A stretch of DNA of 58,584 nucleotides from Chthoniobacterales bacterium (GCA_038225185.1 JBBRFA010000005.1:1-58584), one strand, 5' to 3'. Counted from the first letter of the stretch, positions 1,282 to 30,830 are shown. The notes: generated by a model from the letters alone, not told the origin. A program made the numbers and translations.

Positions 1282-4200
1282 TTACTGCACTTGCAAGCGT
1301 ATGCTGGCTGAGTGGCTGTTAAACTCGGGGGCATACATGCATTGCACCTCAGCGATCCCGGTTTGATAGTCACCCCGGAGTTGCACGCGCACCGGATATT
1401 CAAAGACATAAGTGCCCTCGGGAAGATGCTCGATAAAGAAATGACTCGCCGTGTCGCGAGTTGATTCGTAGTAGCTCAATCCATCCTGGAAACGGCGTCC
1501 GGAAATAACGTTCACCGGCTCCGTGCCGCTCCCGCGCTGATCTTTGAGATGGATGTATTCCATGGCGCGATCCACGCGAAGTTCCACCCGGATGATCAAT
1601 TCATCGCCCGGCGCAACCGGGCCGGTGAGAGCCTGCAAAGTGGGTCCCTGCGGGGTGTTGCGGCGGATAAAAACCTGTTTGGTGAGCTTGAGCGGAGTTC
1701 CCTCGCGGGGGGTGATTTTGGCAATGTCTTCCAGGTATTGCCAATGAATGCCGCCCCAAGCCACGCCTTCGTCTTTTTTTACGACAGTGATGTTGCCCAT
1801 GGCCGGCTGAATGGCATCGAGGGCAAACCGTTTTTCGTAAGCACCCGTGCCCGCCTCGTTGCTGGCGGTGGGGGTAATGTTTGTGCCGCCGAGGCTTACT
1901 TCGACGAGATCGCTGCGCTGGAGAATGTCCTTGCCGCGAAGCAGAAGGGCGTAGATGGCGTCGGCGGTGGACTTGGTGGTTTTCCAGTTTTGGGTTTGCT
2001 TTTGTTTCAGCAACCAGACGCGGCATTCCTCCACGGAGGTGAGGTCGCCAGTGACTTCATCGAAGGCTTCGATGAGCAGCGCCTGGGTTTCGATGGGGGC
2101 ACGGTTCCACCACCAGCTTGGGGAGCTGTCTTTCCAGAACATCCCCATTTCTTCGGTGCTCACGCTGCGTTCCTTGAGGGAGGCCATGATGGCGGTGGGG
2201 GTGGTCTGATCGCCAAAGCGTTTGAGGGCGAGGGCAAGGTGCCCCTGGGTGAGGCGACTGCCGGTTTGGAGCCAGTGTTTTTTGGCTTGGGCCAGATAAA
2301 AATCGACGGCTTCGCGACTGCCTGCGGGGATCTCCCGATCTTTCAAGAAAAAGCTGCGCGTGTAGAGATAGAAGGCTTCGATGGAGGTGGGCACGTGATT
2401 TTTCCAAGCCTTGTTGGTGCTCTTCAGGTCCTGATATTCCTCGGCGATCCAGGCGTCGAGCCGGTTTAAAGCGAGGAGGGCGGGTTCGATATTCACAGAA
2501 GCACCGAGGTGACGCAGCCGGGCGAAACCGCTGGTAATGTAGAGAGTGATAAAATCGTCTCCGCGTCCGCCGGGAAACCAGGGCCAGGCGCCGTCGGGAT
2601 ATTGGGCGGTGCGCAGTTTTTGCAAGGCGCGCTCGGTTTCGGAGTTCAGGCGGGCCTCGTCAAAAAGGATGCCGACATTGCGGCGGGCCTGGCTTTCATT
2701 CTTGGCGTCGCGATAATAGGGCGTCTCTTCGAGCAGAAGAGATTTGAGGTCTTGATTTTTTTCGAGAGGCGAATCGAGGGCCGGGGTGTTACGCCATTGT
2801 TCGAAGACTTGTTGAATGAGCGGATCGCTGCCGGCGATGTGACGGGCAAGAGTGTTGGCGTAGAAACGATTGAAAATCTGTTCGTTGCATTCGAAGGGAT
2901 ATTCCATCAAATAAGGCAGCGCCATCACGGCATACCAGGCGGGATTGGAGACCATTTGCACGACCAGATTGCGGTGTTGCAGAGTGTCGGATTTTTTGGA
3001 ATCGAGCAGTTTTTGGAAGGTAAAAGTCTTCGTGCCGGGACCGCGCATGGGCAGGGGGAGAGATTCGGTGACCAGCACGCGACGGGAGAGCACCGGGAGC
3101 CAGCCTTCTTCGCCATCGGAAACGGTATCGGTCGCGGCCACCGCTTTGTAAGTGAGAAAACCGAGGCCATCGGGCACGCTGATGCGCCAACTAAGGGTGC
3201 GGGATTGCTTGGCTGGAATGGCAAAGTCTTGGGAAAGCTCGGTGAGACCCAGGGCAGTCTCGGCGGGTTGACCGGTCTCGGCTTCGTTAAAATGGAGCTG
3301 CGCTTTGCCAGTCTGAGTTTGTTCGGAGCGATTGGTGATTTTTACCGTGAACTCAACCGTATCGCCTTCGCGGAGAAAACGCGGTGGGTTGGGCTGCACC
3401 ATGAGATCTTTGGCGGTGACCATTTTGCCTTCCAACAGACCCGAACGCAGGCCGGTGTCGTGGGCAAAACCGAGAAAACGCCAGGTGGTCAGCGCCTCGG
3501 GCACGGTGAATTCCATGCGGATGACACCGGCGGCATCGGTGGTCAGTTGCGGAAAGAAAAAAACGGTTTCGTTAAGATTTTTGCGGGCGGCAACCTGTGA
3601 GGGATCAATCGTGGGACCGCTGGAGGGAGTGGTGTCCTTGTTAGTGGCAGATTTATCTTTATTTAGCTCATCAGCCTGCATGGGAGCTGCCGCGGGCATG
3701 GGAGCAGACATGTCGTCCAACGAAGCACCTTCCGGCGCTACCAGTCGATTTAGGAGACCATTGCTGGTGCCTCCTCTGGAGCCCATTCTCCACCCACCGG
3801 TAAAAATCCAGGAGTTCTGCGTTAGTTGAATCGGAAATCTTGCACGAACTATGGCCACAGGTTTGGACTTGGTCTGGAAACCGCCTTTCATCTGTCGCAG
3901 CGGGCGCAGGTCGTTCTGAAATTGGCCGGGGTCGCGAACATTTTCGGAGCGAAAGACCGGGAAATCGCTCATCCAATTCCAGGGTTTGAATTGATCGAGG
4001 GAGGCATCGTAAAGGGTGGCGACAAACTCAGCCGCAGCCACTTCCGCGTCTGGCCCCTGGATCACAGCGGTCCAGGTTTCTTTGGCACCGGGCAGCAGTT
4101 TGGAGGTGAAATGTTCCCATTTGAGAGTGAGTTTTTTCTGGGTCCAAGGCACTTGGATCTGCCGGGCTTCGAGCATGGCCCGGTTTTCCTGCACACGGGT

Positions 4201-20589: not shown

Positions 20590-21480
20590 ATGCAGGAGGC
20601 CATCGATGAGTTTTTGTTATATCTGGCGACAGAAAGAGGGTTATCGACCAATTATCAACTCTCGGTCCGCATCTCTTTGGAAGGCTTCGCGGCGTGGCTG
20701 GCCAAAACACGTTACCGCCTGTCTTTTAACGAAGTGACGATTGAGGATATCACCGATTACCTTGGCCATCGCAAACGCGGTGGACTTGCTCCCGGTTCGA
20801 TCAAATTGCTGATTGTTGCGATTCGAATTTTTTTTAGATTCCTAACGGCGCGTAAGATCCTGTCCCGGGATATCGCGGGGGTGCTTCCCTTGCCCAGGTT
20901 ATCGCGTATTTTGCCCGAGACCTTGAACGAATTGCAGGTGGAACGTTTGCTCGAATCGTTACCCGAAAAACATCCCGCCGCGTTGCGCGACAAAGCGATG
21001 ATCGAATTGCTTTACGCCAGCGGATTGCGAGTCTCGGAGCTGGTGAATGCCCGGCTGGAAAATCTCAATCTTGAGGAAGGTTTCATCCGGGTGGTTGGCA
21101 AGGGCGATAAAATGCGTCTGGTGCCGGTGGGTGCCCGTGCCCGCGAAGCGATTGCCAATTATCTCGCGGTGGAACGTCCCAAGGTGGTCGGGAAAAAAAC
21201 CGGGAGCCAGATTTTTTTAAATCGACGTGGCACGCTCCTAACCACCGTGCGGGTATGGCAGATTGTGAAGCAATGCGCCCGTTTCGCCGGGATTGAGATC
21301 AACGTTTATCCGCATTTGCTGCGGCATTCGTTTGCCACGCATTTGCTGGGTAATGGAGCGGATTTGCGGATTATTCAAGAGATGTTGGGACACGCCGATA
21401 TCGCGACCACCCAGATTTATACGCATGTGGATCGGGATCATTTAAAAGCGATCCACCGTAAGTTTCATCCGCGAGGTTAA
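20590..21480 (+). CDS. xerD: Site-specific tyrosine recombinase XerD
   Basis: ERGLSTN, RDKAMIELLYASGLRVSEL, GKGDKMRLVP, PHLLRHSFATHLL, GADLRIIQEMLGHADIATTQIYTHV, HPRG end. Confidence 0.9.
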   Translation: MQEAIDEFLLYLATERGLSTNYQLSVRISLEGFAAWLAKTRYRLSFNEVTIEDITDYLGHRKRGGLAPGSIKLLIVAIRIFFRFLTARKILSRDIAGVLPLPRLSRILPETLNELQVERLLESLPEKHPAALRDKAMIELLYASGLRVSELVNARLENLNLEEGFIRVVGKGDKMRLVPVGARAREAIANYLAVERPKVVGKKTGSQIFLNRRGTLLTTVRVWQIVKQCARFAGIEINVYPHLLRHSFATHLLGNGADLRIIQEMLGHADIATTQIYTHVDRDHLKAIHRKFHPRG

Positions 21481-21712: not shown

Positions 21713-22231
21713 TTACTGCCCTTTTTTGTAGAGTTCGACGACTTTTTGTTGCAGGGCCGGGAGACGTTCCTTGCGTTTTTGGTCCATCTCGCTGCGCAGT
21801 TCTTCCTCGACTTTGCGACGTTCGGCTCGATAGATTTCGGCAAACTTCCGGCGTTGTTCCTCGTTGAGTTCCAGTCCGCTGTTTTTCAAGGCATTATCCA
21901 CAGCCTGATTGGTGCGTTTTTCACGTTCGCCTTGGATAAATCGCTGATGAGCTTTTTCATCTCCCGGCAATTGTTCCCAGCGGCGCATTTTTTCGAGGAC
22001 TTTCTGGCGATCTTCCGGGCTAAGTTCTTCGAGGCGTTTCCGAAATTTTTTGCCTCGGGGAGGACCGTCTGGACGGGGTTCGCCCCCAAATTTTGGTGGC
22101 CGCGGCTCGTAATCGGACGGAGGCGGTGAAATGGGCGGACCTACAACCGGTTCCTGAGCCAAAAGGGATGGTCCAATGCAGGAGATCCCAAGGAGGACGA
22201 GCGAGGTTAGTAAGAGACGGTGCCGAGCCAT
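21713..22231 (-). CDS. Secreted helical, charged protein (DUF3106/Spy-like)
   Basis: Signal peptide, Pro-rich linker, ELSPEDRQK/WEQLPGDEK helical repeats. Confidence 0.6.
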   Translation of the reverse strand: MARHRLLLTSLVLLGISCIGPSLLAQEPVVGPPISPPPSDYEPRPPKFGGEPRPDGPPRGKKFRKRLEELSPEDRQKVLEKMRRWEQLPGDEKAHQRFIQGEREKRTNQAVDNALKNSGLELNEEQRRKFAEIYRAERRKVEEELRSEMDQKRKERLPALQQKVVELYKKGQ

Positions 22232-22551
22232 AATTCGTTATCGTTGAGGACCAGGTCCAGGTCTTTGAAGGCGACTGGATCATCGACTGGCGCTTTGGCC
22301 AGCAGCACATCGTTGGGAGAGGGAGCGAGCGAGTTTTGCCAGGTGAACAAGAAAGCCAGCAAGGCAAGACCCGTGGTGAGGCCTCCGAGGGTGCGCCAGG
22401 ATTTTTTCCACCAGGATTGCCAGGATGAGGCAGTGTCGGACGTCGATAAACGGATGCGACGCAGCACATCGTCGGTGAATTTTCCCGAGACCTGCGGCTG
22501 GCGAGCTTTCCCCAGTAAATCCCAAAGGGTGTGATCATCTTGCGGTTGCAT
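22207..22551 (-). CDS. Small single-pass membrane protein, anti-sigma-factor-like
   Basis: LWDLLGKA..P.VSGKFTDDVLRRIR N-terminus, one TM helix, acidic tail. Confidence 0.6.
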   Translation of the reverse strand: MQPQDDHTLWDLLGKARQPQVSGKFTDDVLRRIRLSTSDTASSWQSWWKKSWRTLGGLTTGLALLAFLFTWQNSLAPSPNDVLLAKAPVDDPVAFKDLDLVLNDNELWLGTVSY

Positions 22552-22591
22552 ACATGGAATAAAACCAAAAATCGGGTTAAAAGTTGCGGAC

Positions 22592-23806
22592 TTATTTTTT
22601 GGATTTTAGAAAGTTTCGAATGGAGCGGTCGAGTTTACGGGTAAACCAGCGGTGAAAAGGGCCGTGCGAACGAAAAGACTCCCAGGCAGACCGGAGCCGG
22701 GCGAGATTTTTTTCACTGCGCTGGCAGGCTTTGGTTTGCTCGCTGAGCAGCGAACGGAGGTGTTTGTTTTCCGATTGATAACGTTCCAAACGTTGTCCGC
22801 GTTCCACAAAGGGAATAAGGGCGCGCAAATAATCACTGGCTGCGGCAGCTTCCAGAACGGGATCGGGAGTGTGCTTTTTCCATTCCTCAACAGTTGCTTC
22901 GTAAAGTGCAACCAATTGATCGATAGCGCTTTCCGCATCGGCGTGTTGACGGATAAAAGCGGTTGTTTCCGTTTGTGCGGCAGGCTGGTAGGCGTCGATT
23001 TGGGCTGCGAGTTCGGAGGCGGCGAGACCTTCCTCCCAGATGGCGCGGCTAAGATTGATCTCGCGACGGGCGGCGACATTATCGGGAGTAAGGAGCGGCC
23101 CAAGCATTTCGCCATCGGTGGTGCTCACGGCACATCCCCGGGCCAGAGCTTCGAGGGCGGTGCGTCCGGTGCCGAAAACCAAATCGTGCCGGTCATAAAT
23201 CGGGAGTGGATCCACCACATTTCCCTTCACCCAGTCGAGTTCCTGATGAAAAGTGATGCCGCGTTCCTCACAAATGCGTCGCAGATGCTCCAATATCCAC
23301 GGGCGCGGCGGTATTCTGGAGCAAAAAACCGCTGAACGCAGTTTCACGGGAGCGGTTTTTGGTGGGGAAAAATGCTCCAGCCGCAGAAAATTGGGTAGCG
23401 CAGACATTCGCTCGGGTGGGATGTTTTTTTCGAGTATGACTCGCTTGTTTGCGTTGTGGCTAAGGTTGATGTAACGCAAAATTCGCGGATGCACGGCGAC
23501 GCGTTCCTGCAAGGGAACGATGCCGTGAATGTAGCAAATTGCTGGCACATCGGGCAAAGCAAGCAAGGCGGCCATGGTTTCCATGTGATGCTGCCCATGG
23601 ATGATGTCGGGCCGCATTGGCAGCCGGCTTAAATCGCTTACCACAGGAAAAAGTTCATCGGTCAGCAACTCGGAGATATGACCCAGCCGGGCGGAAAAAA
23701 TCATTACGTCGTGCCCTCTTTTTCGGAGGAGACGACAGAGATCGATCACGACGCTTTGCGTGCCTCCGCGCTGACGCAGTGAGTGGTTGGTGATGAGGAT
23801 TTTCAT
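22592..23806 (-). CDS. Glycosyltransferase family 4-like (GT-B) with coiled-coil tail
   Basis: MKILITNHSL..RGGTQ, RGHDV, PDIIHGQH, GRTALEALARGC; ATGA overlap with the upstream Mur ligase. Confidence 0.85.
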   Translation of the reverse strand: MKILITNHSLRQRGGTQSVVIDLCRLLRKRGHDVMIFSARLGHISELLTDELFPVVSDLSRLPMRPDIIHGQHHMETMAALLALPDVPAICYIHGIVPLQERVAVHPRILRYINLSHNANKRVILEKNIPPERMSALPNFLRLEHFSPPKTAPVKLRSAVFCSRIPPRPWILEHLRRICEERGITFHQELDWVKGNVVDPLPIYDRHDLVFGTGRTALEALARGCAVSTTDGEMLGPLLTPDNVAARREINLSRAIWEEGLAASELAAQIDAYQPAAQTETTAFIRQHADAESAIDQLVALYEATVEEWKKHTPDPVLEAAAASDYLRALIPFVERGQRLERYQSENKHLRSLLSEQTKACQRSEKNLARLRSAWESFRSHGPFHRWFTRKLDRSIRNFLKSKK

Positions 23807-25260
23807 GGGACCACGAGGTTCGGAGCAGGGCGCGTTTGGAGAGCGGCGGTTACCTCATGGAGAAGATACGGTCGCGATGGCGGGTGGACCGCGAGGAGCA
23901 GGGTATCGCCCGGGCGCGCCCGCTCGACGATCCAGTGAATGATGCCTTTGCGGGTGTTTTGATAGGTGGCATCGACGTTGCGTTCCAGGAGGTCGGCCAC
24001 GAGGCGATCTGTGGAAAACGGAGGGGTGTAATCCTCGGGTTTTTGGCCGGCAATCGGGGCGATCAAGACGTGATCTGCCAATGTAAGAACCTCGGGAAGG
24101 CGTTTTTGAACGTAGCCATCACCCGGACCGGGATATTGCGGTTGAATCACGCACAGCAACCGGCCTTGAGGATGACTTTCGCGCAATGCCCCGAGAGCGG
24201 TCAACAAGGCGTCGGGATGCACGTTGCTTTCCACATAAAAACGCACGCCACCTGGTGTGCCGGCACTTTGCAAACGATCCTGCACCGGGACGAAGCGCGC
24301 CAAAGCCTTCGCAGAAAACGACGAGGTAATCCCCAGATGGTCTGCGGCCACAGTCGCCAGGGCGGCATCCAAGGCATTGGCGCGCCCGAGCAAAGGCAGA
24401 TTGAAAAATGCTCCCATAAAAGAAAAATGACCTCCACAAGAATGAGCGGAAAAATCCGTGATTCGCTCGTTGTTTACCGGTTCAAACCCCACCGTAATGA
24501 CCTTGCAGGCAGCATGTTGCAACAAATCCGCTGTGCCTGCCGCCTCATCTCCGGCGACCACCGCGACACCGGTCTGGGGGAGGGCGGAGAGCATCGCGGC
24601 AAATATTTTGCGATAATCGGCCACATCCCGATACAACTCGATGTGATCGGGGAAAACGTTCGTGAGAATCGCGTCGGTCGGGCGATAATGGGTAAATTTT
24701 GGGGTCAAATCCGTCGGCGACGACGCATATTCATCCCCTTCGAGAATAGCGAGGGCACCACCCTCCAGACGTAATCCGGTGGAAAAAACCCCCGGCACAC
24801 CACCGATGAGATAATCGGGAGCCAGCCCGGCATTGTCCGCGATCCAGGCGAGCATGGCGGTGGTGGTGGTTTTTCCCTTGCTCCCGGTGATCGCCCAACG
24901 GCGGGTGGCGGGCAAGATCAGAGCGGCCACCACTTCGGGATAGGAGGTGACGAGGGAGCCGGAGTCAATGAGCTGCGCCAGAAACGGGTGATCGGCGGGG
25001 AAGGATCGTCCTGCCACCCAGAGATTTACGTTTTCAAGGTCGGCCGGGGGGGCCGGATCGATTAGGATTGCGGCTTCGCGCAAGCGATCCGACATGGGCG
25101 GATCGGTTTGCGTGTCGCAACCTCCTATATGCCAGCCTTGTCGTTGGAGGCAGAGAGCCAGGGGTGCCATGGCGATGCCGCAGATGCCGAGAAAGTAAAT
25201 CCGTTTGCCACCAGGAGATTGCTGCAAAAATGAGGCGACAGGAAGATGGGGACCGGACAT
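23803..25260 (-). CDS. Mur ligase family protein (Mpl/MurC-like, divergent C-terminal domain)
   Basis: LGICGIAM Rossmann motif, P-loop TGSKGKTTTT, EGDEY, TNVFPDH. Confidence 0.85.
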   Translation of the reverse strand: MSGPHLPVASFLQQSPGGKRIYFLGICGIAMAPLALCLQRQGWHIGGCDTQTDPPMSDRLREAAILIDPAPPADLENVNLWVAGRSFPADHPFLAQLIDSGSLVTSYPEVVAALILPATRRWAITGSKGKTTTTAMLAWIADNAGLAPDYLIGGVPGVFSTGLRLEGGALAILEGDEYASSPTDLTPKFTHYRPTDAILTNVFPDHIELYRDVADYRKIFAAMLSALPQTGVAVVAGDEAAGTADLLQHAACKVITVGFEPVNNERITDFSAHSCGGHFSFMGAFFNLPLLGRANALDAALATVAADHLGITSSFSAKALARFVPVQDRLQSAGTPGGVRFYVESNVHPDALLTALGALRESHPQGRLLCVIQPQYPGPGDGYVQKRLPEVLTLADHVLIAPIAGQKPEDYTPPFSTDRLVADLLERNVDATYQNTRKGIIHWIVERARPGDTLLLAVHPPSRPYLLHEVTAALQTRPAPNLVVP

Positions 25261-25299
25261 AAAAAAACCTCCGCAACGATGAGTCGCGGAGGTTTTTTT
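25261..25299. terminator. Rho-independent terminator (bidirectional-looking)
   Basis: aaaaaaacctccgc-loop-gcggaggttttttt. Confidence 0.85.
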
Positions 25300-25316
25300 A
25301 TCGAGAAAAAAGACGA

Positions 25317-25439
25317 TTATTCTGTGATGATCGTGCCCGACCCAAAGACCCCGCTATCGATGATTGGACCCGCTGCAAGGATGCTTTGGGTGATGACAGG
25401 ACCAACGGGGATGATTTCGGAATGTATGTTTAATTTCAT
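25317..25439 (-). CDS. Unannotated 40-aa peptide MKLNIHSEIIPVGPVITQSILAAGPIIDSGVFGSGTIITE
   Basis: Hand translation ATG(25439) to TAA(25317); CA-rich leader caacacactcaaacacacatctcatt; terminator 17 nt after the stop; internal 11-aa periodicity. Confidence 0.7.
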   Translation of the reverse strand: MKLNIHSEIIPVGPVITQSILAAGPIIDSGVFGSGTIITE

Positions 25440-25631
25440 AATGAGATGTGTGTTTGAGTGTGTTGATTAATGTGAATTGCAGAGAATTCTGCCCGACAAT
25501 ATTTTGTATAGATTTTGGTGATTCGACAGACAAGAAAAAAATCACCGTCCCTCAAAAATTCTGGCGCGAAATGGATTCTGGCTTGCGGGTTATAAGCTTT
25601 CCAGCTATCAAACTCCCAAAATCACCTGCAT

Positions 25632-26411
25632 TTGTCTGTCTCCATTTCTCAATATTCCGTTGAGCCAACCGTTGTCAGCGGAAAGTGGGTGCTGTCGGTG
25701 ATTTTGCCTGGTATTCGTCCTCAAATATTGGGCGATGCACTGGAGGCCAGCCTGTCTGGAAGTGGCATCGGTTATAATGATAAAAGTCTTCTCCTGGATG
25801 TGGCCGATGAAACGATCCATCCAGCCGACCGGGCCATTTCTGTCTGGGCTCATCGCCAGCGGCGTGAGCGGCTGGTTGTTCATGCGAGAGAACTTAGCGC
25901 CCTCTGGCAATTGCTGGCCGACGACATCTGGATCACGATTATCGGCGATCCCATCTGGCGCGCGGTCGATTGTTTTCGCAATCTCTCGACGAATCCCACT
26001 CACCCGCTCCACGCCGGGATCGTGGAAAAAAAAATCACGCTGGGAGAATTTTACCGTTCGCCTCTCTCTGTCTCGGTCTGCAATCGGCAATGCCGCAAGC
26101 TGGCCCTCACGGGAGCGGAGACCAGCGTCGATCTCATGCTGACCAACGCCACCAAGGCACTAAAACAATTTGCCTGGATCGGGCTGGAAGGCGTGGATGC
26201 CGGCCCACAAAAAAAACTCGGGACACTTTTACAGCAAAACGGCTATCCCTGCGCCATTCCAGTGCTGGCCATCGGGTTGCCTCCCAAAAAATTACCCGAT
26301 CCTGAGACGCAGGAAATTATTCGCAAAGCGGAGGCCGCTGATTGTGCCCTGTGGGAAAAGGCGAGGGAGATGCGAGCGGAAAGTTTTGCCGGGACGAAAG
26401 CCCAATCATGA
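25632..26411 (+). CDS. Degenerate sulfotransferase family 2-like protein
   Basis: ITIIGDPIWRAVDCF resembles the T.LRDP..R..S.Y motif; NRQCRKL and LKQFAWIGLE match that family's pattern; no clear 5'-PSB motif; ATGA overlap with the next gene. Confidence 0.5.
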   Translation: MSVSISQYSVEPTVVSGKWVLSVILPGIRPQILGDALEASLSGSGIGYNDKSLLLDVADETIHPADRAISVWAHRQRRERLVVHARELSALWQLLADDIWITIIGDPIWRAVDCFRNLSTNPTHPLHAGIVEKKITLGEFYRSPLSVSVCNRQCRKLALTGAETSVDLMLTNATKALKQFAWIGLEGVDAGPQKKLGTLLQQNGYPCAIPVLAIGLPPKKLPDPETQEIIRKAEAADCALWEKAREMRAESFAGTKAQS

Positions 26412-27976
26412 TCGCTCTGCCCGAAACTTCTGCACCGATTCTGCCCCGGCTGCTGTTTGTGAGGGGTTGCACCCGCGAGGTTGAAGAATATTTCCAACTC
26501 TCGGCCGTGCAACCTTGGGTGGAAGGTTTGGGGCATCATTTCCAGATCGAAGTGGTGCAGGATGCGAAGTGTCTGCTTACGGTCGCAGAAAAATTCGCGC
26601 CCGATCTCGTGCTTTTTTTTGGTGCCAAATATCAATTGCTTTACAGCGGTCCGGCGTTGGATTTTCGCGAAAGACTCGGGGTTCCCGTCGTTGCTTTGAG
26701 CCTGATGGATGCCCACAGCCCGGCCAGGGAGGCTTTTTTTGCCCAGGCCAGTCGTTTGGGCGTCGAGGCCATTTTTAGCATCGATACCGGGATGCGGGAA
26801 ATGGCGGGCGATTTCGCGCCGATGATTTTTTATTGCCCGTGGTTTGTGAACGAAAAAATGAGCTACGATTTCGCCCTTCCCAAGACGGTTCCCATCGCTT
26901 TGATCGGCGATGGGTTTGTTTCCACGGGGAACGATTGGCGTTATCCCTGGCGGCGCGAAGTGGCAGGGCGTTTATTAGAACATTTCCCCGTCTTTACTTC
27001 TCCCCGGCCGGGAAAAAACTATAGCCATCGGATGGTTGGCGCTGCCTATGGGCAGATGCTGAATCGAAGCTGGCTGGCGCTCGCCTGTGGAGCGTCGCGC
27101 CATATTTTCATGAAGAAAAATCTGGAGATACCCGCCAGCCGTTGTTGTCTGGTGACCGAGCCCAACGAAGCTCTTGTCCACCTGGGGTTTCGCGATGGTG
27201 AAAACTGTCTCTTTGCCGCGCCCGACGATGTGTTGGAAAAATGCCGGGACATGCTTGCCGATCCGACGCGGCTTTTGGAAATCACGGATCGCGGACGCGC
27301 CTTCGTTCTGGAAAATCATCGCGCCATCCATCGCACCGTGATTGCCGACTGGCTGGCTTGCCGGCAACGTCTGGGGGCCGGGCAACGCATTCTCCAGAAA
27401 GAGATTTGCGGACCATTGGAAGTCACAGGGGACAACGATGGCCGCGAGTCCATTCATCTGAGCGCGCACTCTCCCTTTCAACTAGCCCTTGAGGAGGCGC
27501 GGAGGTTTTGGCGGGCGGGAGAGTATGCCGCAAGCGCCGCCGCCGCAGCCCGCGCGGGACACTTGCTTAGACAAACCACCGAACCGTCTTTGCTCCTGGC
27601 TTGGGCGGCGTTGGGATGCCACCAGCCGCAGGAAGCATTGGATGAGTTGCGCGCGATTTTACTCCGTTCGGTGCAGCGTGCAGCCATGGCCCCCGATCCT
27701 CTTATCTGGGCCACCTATCTGCTTGGATTAAAACTGGCCGGTCACCATCGGGAGGCAACGTTGTTTGCCGGAAGCTTTCCCGATTTGCGGCATCCTTTGC
27801 TCGACCGGATTAAATCCATTCTCCTGCCGCAATGGGAAGCCGTGCCGACGCGTTACCAACCCTCGGCCTTGTTTCCGCCGTGGTCTTCAGCAGAAGAGTT
27901 AACGCGTTTTCTGGAGCCGTTGCTTGCCCGGATTCAGGAAAATCCATTGCCAAATGAGGTGACAAGCCAGGCATGA
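26408..27976 (+). CDS. Glycosyltransferase (CgeB/Glyco_trans_1_2-like) with TPR-like helical tail
   Basis: YPWRR, GAAYGQMLNRS, KNLEIPASRCCLVT, LGFRDGENC, EITDRGRAFV. Confidence 0.75.
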   Translation: MIALPETSAPILPRLLFVRGCTREVEEYFQLSAVQPWVEGLGHHFQIEVVQDAKCLLTVAEKFAPDLVLFFGAKYQLLYSGPALDFRERLGVPVVALSLMDAHSPAREAFFAQASRLGVEAIFSIDTGMREMAGDFAPMIFYCPWFVNEKMSYDFALPKTVPIALIGDGFVSTGNDWRYPWRREVAGRLLEHFPVFTSPRPGKNYSHRMVGAAYGQMLNRSWLALACGASRHIFMKKNLEIPASRCCLVTEPNEALVHLGFRDGENCLFAAPDDVLEKCRDMLADPTRLLEITDRGRAFVLENHRAIHRTVIADWLACRQRLGAGQRILQKEICGPLEVTGDNDGRESIHLSAHSPFQLALEEARRFWRAGEYAASAAAAARAGHLLRQTTEPSLLLAWAALGCHQPQEALDELRAILLRSVQRAAMAPDPLIWATYLLGLKLAGHHREATLFAGSFPDLRHPLLDRIKSILLPQWEAVPTRYQPSALFPPWSSAEELTRFLEPLLARIQENPLPNEVTSQA

Positions 27977-29795: not shown

Positions 29796-30830
29796 TTAGT
29801 CGGCCCGGAGATCGGTGACGAGGGCATCGACATCGGAGGCGAGTTTGCCGATGTCTTTAAAGAGCTTGAGTTTGGCGGCGTCTTCCGCTGGCGGGAAGCT
29901 GGCAGGATTGGCCAGATCTTCGGGCGACAACAATTTACGCGCCTCCAGATTGGGGTTGGTGTAAGGGAAGTCGGCGGAGATCAAGGCGCTGATTTCGGGT
30001 TGCAAAATAAAGTTGATGAATTTCTCGGCGTTGGCCTTGTTTTTGGATTTTTTGGGAACGGCCAGGCTGTCGATAAATTGATGGGAACTTTCCTTGGGCA
30101 CGACCCATTTGAATTTTTTATCCTCGCGCAGGAGCAAGGCGCCTTCTCCGCTCCAGACGAGACCGAGATCGGTGTCGCCATTGAGCAACGAAGTCTTGGG
30201 ACTGTCGGAATCATAGACTTTGACCAAGGGCAACCATTTGGCGAGAACGCCGCGGGCTTTTTCGAGGTTTTCCGTGGTGATATCGTTGAAGGGGATGCCG
30301 AGTGAACCGAGAGCGGCGCTGACCAATTCGCGGGCGTCATCGAGCACGACGATGCGACGTTTGTATTTTTCCTGGAATAAATCGGCGTAACCTGTGATGG
30401 GTTCCTTGATTTTAGCGGTGTTAACCACGATGCCGACCGAGCCGACCATCCAGGGCACGCTATATTTGTTGGCAGGATCGAAACTTAGGTTGAGGTATTC
30501 GGGCGCGATATTTTTGAGGTTGGGAATGGCGGAGAGATCGAGTGGCTGGAGGAGGTTTTCCTTGATCAACGCCTCGATGGTGTATTCGCTGGGCTGGATG
30601 AGATCGTAGGAGCCGCCGCTGACGAGTTTGGCGAGCATTTCCTCGTTGGAGGCATAGTTTTCCAGGGAGACCTTGATGCCGGTGGATTCCTGAAATTTAT
30701 CGATGACGGCCTGCGGAATATATTCCGACCAGCTAAAGATGCTGAGAGTGCCCTGGGCAAATGCACCGCTGATGGTGAGCAGCCAGCAGAAGGCAGCGAG
30801 GATGAGGTGTGGGATGCGTGGTGTTTTCAT
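29796..30830 (-). CDS. potD: Spermidine/putrescine ABC transporter substrate-binding protein
   Basis: WSEYI, SNEEMLAKL, YDLIQPSEY, FDPANKYSVPW, LDDARE, WSGE. Confidence 0.9.
   Translation of the reverse strand: MKTPRIPHLILAAFCWLLTISGAFAQGTLSIFSWSEYIPQAVIDKFQESTGIKVSLENYASNEEMLAKLVSGGSYDLIQPSEYTIEALIKENLLQPLDLSAIPNLKNIAPEYLNLSFDPANKYSVPWMVGSVGIVVNTAKIKEPITGYADLFQEKYKRRIVVLDDARELVSAALGSLGIPFNDITTENLEKARGVLAKWLPLVKVYDSDSPKTSLLNGDTDLGLVWSGEGALLLREDKKFKWVVPKESSHQFIDSLAVPKKSKNKANAEKFINFILQPEISALISADFPYTNPNLEARKLLSPEDLANPASFPPAEDAAKLKLFKDIGKLASDVDALVTDLRAD

Follow-up and report, generated by a model that had tools for sequence, protein, structure and literature searches.

The question raised by this locus is whether a short open reading frame (ORF) lying in front of a Mur ligase gene is a gene at all and, if so, whether its product could be a ribosomal substrate of the enzymes encoded behind it. 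The DNA analysed, which we call the window, is a stretch of 58,584 nucleotides from a Chthoniobacterales bacterium (GCA_038225185.1, JBBRFA010000005.1:1-58584). Its genome, G000, was compared with congeneric Chthoniobacterales genomes, three of which (G001, G003 and G005) carry the genes discussed here while two (G002 and G004) do not. A sequence-only reading of the window had proposed the ORF as the gene of a candidate precursor peptide with an 11-residue repeat, a CA-rich leader and a strong terminator directly ahead of the ligase gene.

The ORF itself was borne out by translation. Read on the minus strand from 25439 to 25317 (25317..25439), it runs ATG AAA ... TAA and encodes 40 residues followed by the TAA stop. 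The peptide opens with an N-terminal MK... segment and continues with three 11-residue units of the pattern G-x-x-I-[TD]-x-x-hydrophobic-hydrophobic-x-x, the third of them incomplete; the motifs G-P-V-I-T, G-P-I-I-D and G-T-I-I-T begin at residues 13, 24 and 35, as had been claimed. Set against itself at an offset of 11, the peptide gives 8 identities in 29 positions, a score that 0.1% of 20000 shuffles match at that offset; since 3.7% of shuffles match it at any offset, the period-11 signal of the window copy alone is marginal and only suggestive. The 40 nt 5' of the ATG (25440..25479, minus strand) form a leader that is rich in C and A (75% together), contains no G and has no Shine-Dalgarno-like run, and CA-rich leaders are also found 5' of the orthologous small ORFs described below. 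This leader had been likened to those of other genes in the window, a likeness that holds for a minority only of the 29 gene starts tabulated, namely 29796-30830 (90% C+A), 20590 (75%), 46843 (72%) and 55218 (no G).

All three of the congeners that have a ligase orthologue also have a small ORF immediately upstream of it, with 57 residues and four units in both G005 and G001, and 36 residues and two units in G003. The sequence-only reading had offered the lack of any conserved small ORF near homologous clusters as grounds for its own rejection; a repeat ORF and a hairpin were found upstream in 3 of the 3 genomes with the orthologous enzyme pair. In these congeners the repeat is far clearer than in the window (G-x-P-I-[ST]-E-[GD]-[IV]-[LIF]-x-x), and the period-11 signal in G005, G001 and P0002, a database protein introduced below, was matched by 0 of 20000 shuffles. 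The window peptide aligns with its orthologues unit by unit (I-T-Q-S-I-L-A-A against I-T-E-G-I-L-A-T) and ends within the third unit. Although the peptides are only 30-45% identical, the residue motif is retained across them. Together they make up an acidic family with an MK... head and two to four 11-residue units, in which members differ by whole units (in-frame indels of 33 nt) and conservation is higher over the first 11-13 residues than in the spacers.

Several measures indicate that it is the protein sequence that is being kept. Between G005 and G001 the small ORF has a dS of 0.92 and a dN of 0.15 (dN/dS 0.16), and the differences at codon positions 1, 2 and 3 number 7, 9 and 23. Tandem Repeats Finder reported no DNA repeat in either of these two loci, and a protein repeat without a DNA repeat implies that the repeat is maintained at the protein level. 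In the window, the frame-specific codon-usage score of the ORF is 13.45, compared with 16.1 +/- 6.6 for in-frame gene pieces and -10.9 +/- 6.7 for out-of-frame pieces, and only 0.2% of the out-of-frame pieces of the window's genes match it. The exact window peptide is missing from a collection of 15 billion proteins, and so are the peptides of G005 and G001, which indicates that these ORFs were never called as genes. On the strength of the orthologues, the dN/dS, the whole-unit indels and the gene-like codon usage, we conclude from comparative sequence evidence that the ORF is a real, selected, translated-looking and lineage-specific small gene. That it might instead be an open frame present by chance in a small RNA or non-coding leader, as its shortness, the marginal periodicity of the window copy (p = 0.037 over all offsets) and its absence from the output of every gene caller could suggest, is already effectively refuted and retains a negligible probability, given that the frame is open in four genomes and two strain variants, that substitutions are in excess at third positions and indels come in 33-nt units, that so few out-of-frame pieces reach its codon-usage score, and that no Rfam family was matched in the window.

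Variation at the level of strains is concentrated in the same place. The region 22500-26400 of the window was found in 12 contigs from 8 studies, all of them DNA and none from an RNA run, and in two strain-level variants from metagenome contigs the ORF is open and its length unchanged. The variant X3 has 17 base differences over 708 nt, 14 of them within the 123-nt ORF, giving ~11% divergence in the ORF against ~0.5% in its flanks; two further changes fall in the A-run upstream of the hairpin described below, and none is listed in the stem or U-run. Eight codons of X3 alter the residue, at positions 12, 22, 23 and 30-34 only, leaving the head and the G-P-x-I motifs unchanged and placing the variation at spacer positions. 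Nine of the base changes lie within 14 nt, a clustering more suggestive of segment replacement than of point mutation. Separately, in one contig of run X8 (depth 2.3) the 3' part of the peptide gene (window 25310-25394) is duplicated, with 53 letters between the copies; this weak signal may come from a second, tandem gene copy in some related strain or from faulty assembly.

The peptide family is tiny, consisting of four genomes of one genus and two orphan proteins. A word-indexed search of 5.8 billion proteins yielded one real match among 21 candidates, P0002, with 46 aa and three units. An exhaustive HMM search of 1.84 billion representatives yielded nine matches, with P0002 found again and P0008 (49 aa) new; five of the seven long proteins from this search (P0004, P0005, P0006, P0009 and P0010) are unrelated repeat proteins, and P0003 and P0007 were left out. 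P0004 and P0009 are long and eukaryote-looking, and have many tandem 11-residue repeats of their own (G-R-P-I-S-D-E-V-F-T-P and T-E-P-I-S-S-N-L-V-P-R), which are probably convergent with the peptide family.

With the family profile, the peptide was found in 4 of the 401 genomes sampled from the order and 3 of the 401 from the class, all of a single genus. The order-wide search returned 37 of 401 genomes at E <= 0.1, 4 of them real; four of the 33 weak matches were inspected and all were rejected as alternative frames. Class-wide, 24 of 401 genomes matched, of which 3 were real, and the other 21 matches lie in large frames (20 of ~1270-1330 aa and one of 521 aa); the one inspected was RpoB. A stretch of ~40 residues of RpoB (L206 1501-1626 and about 20 other genomes of Verrucomicrobiota) scores E ~1e-4 against the peptide profile, a likeness that we judge to be a chance resemblance of strand-turn motifs. 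Searching 41 relatives with the single peptide gave 10 genomes at E <= 10, and besides G000 only G005 was real. The matches in L004, L005, L006, L008, L011 and L012 proved to be alternative frames of large genes or to have no ligase nearby, and those in L003, L007, L009 and L010 sit in open frames of 395-866 aa. A metagenome scan with the peptide produced 265 pattern matches, none of which was confirmed, and a first scan of genome contigs with one protein as query produced no match. NCBIfam returned no family for any of the six peptide members, and PADLOC gave no match; Pfam MF_alpha matched three of the six (E = 0.013), which was judged spurious, with no other Pfam match. The libraries and literature searched contained no description of the peptide family or of a Mur ligase and a GT4 glycosyltransferase as its partners.

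The small gene is followed by a predicted intrinsic terminator (25261..25299, minus strand) made up of an A7 run, a 10-bp stem, a 5-nt loop and a U7 run. This hairpin begins 17 nt past the stop of the small ORF and ends at the ligase ATG. Its stability of -28.9 kcal/mol compares with -10.4 +/- 2.7 for shuffles (z = -6.9, with 0 of 200 shuffles as stable); a simple consensus terminator scanner did not list it. Both the strong hairpin at this distance from the stop and the position of the ligase ATG (25260-25258) directly after the U-run, with 0 nt between, are thus as first described. Strong hairpins with a U-run occur at the same place in G005/G001 and in G003, alike in shape and position and unrelated in sequence. 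The most plausible ligase start lies 0 nt (G000), 3 nt (G001) or ~10 nt (G003) past the U-run, too close for a separate promoter to fit in between, so that the enzyme genes would be transcribed only by read-through. In G005 (L014 1345-1480) an insertion of ~135 nt relative to G001, with a long inverted repeat, lies between the terminator and the ligase start; it displaces the ancestral ligase start, a remnant of which can still be read immediately behind the U-run, and the start now used is a new ATG 19 codons ahead of FLGICG.

An arrangement of this kind could also mean that the ORF acts as a leader in cis only, its translation controlling termination by attenuation or a ribosome-induced mechanism, and hence the expression of the ligase and GT4, with no role for the peptide itself. 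The order of short ORF, terminator and biosynthetic genes is that of an attenuator, the initiation region of the ligase overlaps the hairpin and is buried in it at three of the four loci, and termination in the mcc operon is controlled by the binding of ribosomes to mccA (PMC4231749). We nevertheless regard this explanation as quite improbable. In the minimum-energy folds of the four leaders the hairpin formed alone in each, with no antiterminator pairing, and the stop lies 17 nt (G000) or about 20-36 nt (the other three, by reading) from the hairpin, a distance over which a terminating ribosome would not mask the GC stem; attenuator leader peptides differ in having alternative antiterminator and terminator pairings coupled to ribosome position. 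There are also no runs of one regulatory codon, and the low dN/dS, together with a motif kept in such divergent peptides, implies that the amino-acid sequence matters.

The gene behind the hairpin (23803..25260, minus strand) encodes a Mpl/MurC-type Mur ligase paralogue of 485 aa with the N, M and C Mur_ligase domains of Pfam (PF01225, PF08245 and PF02875). It scores 187.6 bits against NCBIfam mpl (TIGR01081, cut-off 388.7) and 175.4 bits against murC (TIGR01082, cut-off 335.1), which is below both equivalog cut-offs, at about half, and its nearest solved structures are 3hn7, 6cau and 3eag. The likeness to Mpl and MurC extends from these best profile and PDB matches and the three domains to the P-loop GKTTT and the columns invariant across 30 Mpl-like sequences (the Mpl/MurC catalytic columns), all of which are retained; unlike them, the protein belongs to a separate, fast-evolving Verrucomicrobiota clade, and its gene shares an operon with those for a GT4 and a peptide. 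In a maximum-likelihood tree (quick search, LG+G4, 46 rows) the four ligases of this locus type form one clade (SH-aLRT 99), sister to L045 of the Verrucomicrobiales (94), and with L045 they fall inside a Verrucomicrobiota paralogue clade (99), apart from the housekeeping Mpl-like clade, which comprises 24 Chthoniobacterales rows and has terminal branches about four times shorter. A search of 41 related genomes gave a ligase match in 38 at E <= 1e-20, and an orthologue only in G005, G001 and G003, at 53-55% identity. At this threshold G000 yields a single ligase match, compared with 2-4 per congener; most relatives have the housekeeping Mpl-like ligase, of which no copy was found in the G000 assembly (94% complete). 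In a metagenome scan with the ligase (598 pattern matches, 575 confirmed relatives), the best 80 of the 575 are all <= 39% identical.

The third gene (22592..23806, minus strand) starts within the ligase stop (ATGA) and encodes a GT4 glycosyltransferase of 404 aa, assigned by an N-terminal Glyco_transf_4 signature only (Pfam), with no NCBIfam match and no PDB sequence match. In G001, G003 and G005 a GT4 of 46-47% identity is encoded directly downstream of the ligase, its start overlapping or abutting the ligase stop.

The order of peptide ORF, hairpin, Mur ligase and GT4 is found in 4 of the 4 genomes with this ligase clade, and the three genes make up a cassette of about 2.9 kb, carried by a few bacteria of soil and water. 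The cassette sits between genes for an aldo-keto reductase (AKR) and SMC in G005 and G003, and in G001 the same AKR-like ORF lies upstream of it (on the upstream side, the only one read). The corresponding site in G002 has no cassette, with about 60 nt between the AKR stop and the SMC start; no peptide and no ligase orthologue was found in the assemblies of G002 (77% complete) and G004 (95% complete). In G000 the cassette is elsewhere and neighbours a gene for a tyrosine recombinase; SMC is encoded on a different contig, adjacent to an S41-type peptidase, and the AKR was not found in the 94%-complete assembly. Judged by these gene orders, peptide, ligase and GT4 form a self-contained cassette whose gain, loss and relocation involve all three genes together. 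Its enzymes evolve fast by the measure of protein identity, with G000 and G005 sharing 78% in SMC, 55% in the ligase and 46% in GT4. The protein collection also contains 13 ligase clusters with 48% identity or more to the window's ligase and 11 GT4 clusters with 43% or more to its GT4, and six ligase/GT4 cluster pairs agree in the size of their longest contig. P0002, the ligase P0103 and the GT4 P0014 each derive from an NCBI contig of 3895 nt; they are probably on the same contig, which suggests a fifth complete cassette.

Some features of the surrounding DNA deserve separate mention. Two ORFs lie downstream of GT4 in G000 only (21713-22551, minus strand), one of 114 aa with a single hydrophobic segment and one of 172 aa for a secreted, coiled, charged protein with weak Metal_resist/DUF3106 matches, and neither is part of the cassette in the other genomes; a XerC/D-type recombinase gene follows them on the opposite strand (20590-21480). 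Divergent from the peptide gene is a 259-aa ORF (25632-26411, plus strand) with gene-like codon usage (0.30 per codon) and no Pfam match, which overlaps the TTG start of a 544-aa Glyco_trans_1_2 ORF (26342-27976) by 70 nt, and one of the two starts is probably wrong. In G004 (L215 2680-3370) the AKR is followed by ~700 nt of repeated palindromic elements, with units around GTTCCCAAACTTCAGTTTGGGAACG, and not by the cassette or SMC; the locus ends there.

More distant relatives of the two enzymes are also found side by side. Adjacent ligase-GT4 pairs occur in four Verrucomicrobiales genomes (L045, L046, L047 and L063), with 35-37% identity in the ligase and 30-33% in GT4, and no periodic small ORF was found within 4 kb of them, which implies that the enzymes can work without such a peptide. 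A 36% identical ligase, P0109, is also found in the cultured Phragmitibacter flavus. In L045 the ligase-GT4 pair, with a ligase of 37% identity, is closely preceded by an ORF of 36 aa (3773-3883), which has a CA-rich leader, is followed by a masked run of N and resembles the family by eye (L-P-I-V-D-E-G and P-R-x-G-D-P); as a family member it was rejected (E > 10 with the family HMM, hhalign probability 0.2%). The loci of Verrucomicrobiaceae have a weak ATP-grasp (GSH-S_ATP-like) ORF convergent to GT4 (L047 6576-7577, minus strand) and an alpha/beta-hydrolase-like secreted protein encoded directly upstream of the ligase. Outside the paired clades, the GT4 family was found in 4 further genomes of the 401 in the phylum sample, with no ligase within 1.5 kb.

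Enzyme pairs that do without the repeat ORF lend weight to an explanation in which the peptide is an unmodified, small, beta-rich protein (a regulator, an enzyme subunit or chaperone, or a co-transcribed structural peptide) and what the ligase and GT4 produce is a non-ribosomal glyco-amino acid. It should also be considered that the only invariant positions of the unit are G, I and two hydrophobics, a strand-plus-turn pattern that recurs by chance in Ig-like adhesin repeats (P0006 and P0010) and in RpoB. Moreover, no RRE/PqqD-like domain was found in Pfam/NCBIfam scans of the ligase and GT4, and the cassette contains no protease or exporter, having only three genes bounded by the unrelated housekeeping genes AKR and SMC. 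Against this, a fold that tolerates two, three or four units and an incomplete last one would be odd for a fixed partner, the focus of variation on the spacers of the ORF, with its flanks so nearly constant, is more like that of a diversifying product, and the peptide is co-inherited strictly with the enzymes. On balance we consider an unmodified protein doubtful, while giving it substantial weight.

The leading hypothesis is that the ligase and/or GT4 act on the peptide as a ribosomal substrate or precursor, which we hold tentatively and with confidence somewhat short of even. For the precursor proposal of the sequence-only reading, the conserved small ORF beside the enzymes and its purifying selection stand in favour; against it are a cassette lacking an RRE, protease and exporter, and the distant pairs lacking a repeat ORF. 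The suggestion that Ser, Thr and Asp positions of the units are modification sites fared worse, as family members disagree at them, with T, S, D, R or E found at unit position 5 and E, Q or S at position 6. That the candidate acceptors (T/S at the former, E at the latter) vary counts against the precursor hypothesis. Among the features general to RiPP precursors, the locus appears to offer a short ORF under protein-level selection that is co-inherited with candidate tailoring enzymes, and it lacks the dedicated protease and/or exporter that is common, though not universal.

If the peptide is a precursor, the cassette would be expected to work as follows. One promoter would serve all three genes. 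Most transcripts would end at the hairpin and yield peptide only, and a minority would read through, with a ligase start in or just behind the hairpin keeping enzyme output low. The peptide would then act as a ribosomal substrate or scaffold of the ligase and/or GT4. Mpl joins a ready-made peptide, via its free amino group, to the carboxylate of UDP-MurNAc, and an Mpl paralogue with a nucleotide-sugar domain could couple a ribosomal peptide in the same manner. The product of the small gene may thus be a RiPP-like precursor, or may be joined to a non-ribosomal building block, probably a UDP-sugar acid, as Mpl joins its peptide to UDP-MurNAc. A more specific proposal is that the Mpl-type enzyme couples a UDP-sugar acid (UDP-MurNAc-like) to the repeat peptide or extends its carboxylate, that GT4 then passes the sugar-peptide to an acceptor, and that the result is the first Mur-ligase-dependent ribosomal natural product; in this full form we think it unlikely.

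Known systems offer partial parallels. In microcin C synthesis the small gene mccA is separated by an intrinsic terminator from mccB and the enzyme genes, an arrangement that sets the ratio of precursor to enzyme, and one promoter has been shown experimentally to give an abundant short and a rare long transcript (PMC4231749). The cassette is similar in placing a very short substrate-type gene first and an intrinsic terminator before the enzyme genes, and by analogy its transcripts may follow the same pattern. It differs in its components, as MccA has 7 residues and no repeats and is acted on by the adenylating MccB, whereas here there are 40-57 residues of 11-mers (window, G005 and G001), a Mur ligase and a GT4. 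For the chemistry, a closer parallel is the PGM1 ligase of pheganomycin synthesis, which joins a non-ribosomal acid to a ribosomal peptide (PMC8939145, citing Noike et al. 2015). This ATP-dependent carboxylate-amine ligation is what an Mpl-type enzyme would perform on the peptide, but PGM1 has an ATP-grasp fold, the pheganomycin cluster has many further enzymes, and we found no sequence relation to the pheganomycin pathway.

Graspetide precursors can carry several tandem cores, with tandem duplication and the gain or loss of small units as the commonest changes (PMC8939145). The peptide family resembles them (microviridin-like and plesiocin-like) in its unit number of 2 to 4, its variable spacers and the hint of a second tandem copy in X8. 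Unlike graspetide loci, the cassette has no ATP-grasp macrocyclase, its only ligase being of the Mur-ligase fold, and the ring positions (T/S/K and D/E) are not conserved. Glycocins pair a SunS-type GT2 glycosyltransferase with a Cys-stapled helical hairpin peptide; here the transferase is a GT4, the window peptide has no Cys and the other members have one Cys each. In the literature searched we found no Mur ligase acting on a ribosomal peptide, and the sole related remark was that Mur ligases co-occur with cyclodipeptide synthases (PMC2922099). By analogy we file the cassette with systems that combine a small substrate-peptide gene, a leaky terminator and tailoring enzymes. Within the libraries and literature searched, that layout is documented, and what is new is the peptide family and its association with these two enzymes, Mur ligase and GT4; the peptide may be of a new enzyme-tailored kind.

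Even on the most cautious reading, the locus contains a conserved small gene that gene callers miss, and it shows that Mpl paralogues of Verrucomicrobiota are more than simple recycling ligases. If the peptide is a substrate, Mur ligases would represent a new enzyme fold among the tailors of ribosomal peptides, and the chemistry of peptidoglycan precursors would be linked with genetically encoded peptides. To our knowledge the natural products of Verrucomicrobiota are almost unexplored. Should the coupling to a UDP-sugar acid be true, cell-wall-precursor chemistry would have been recruited in these bacteria to make or anchor a genetically encoded, hypervariable peptide.
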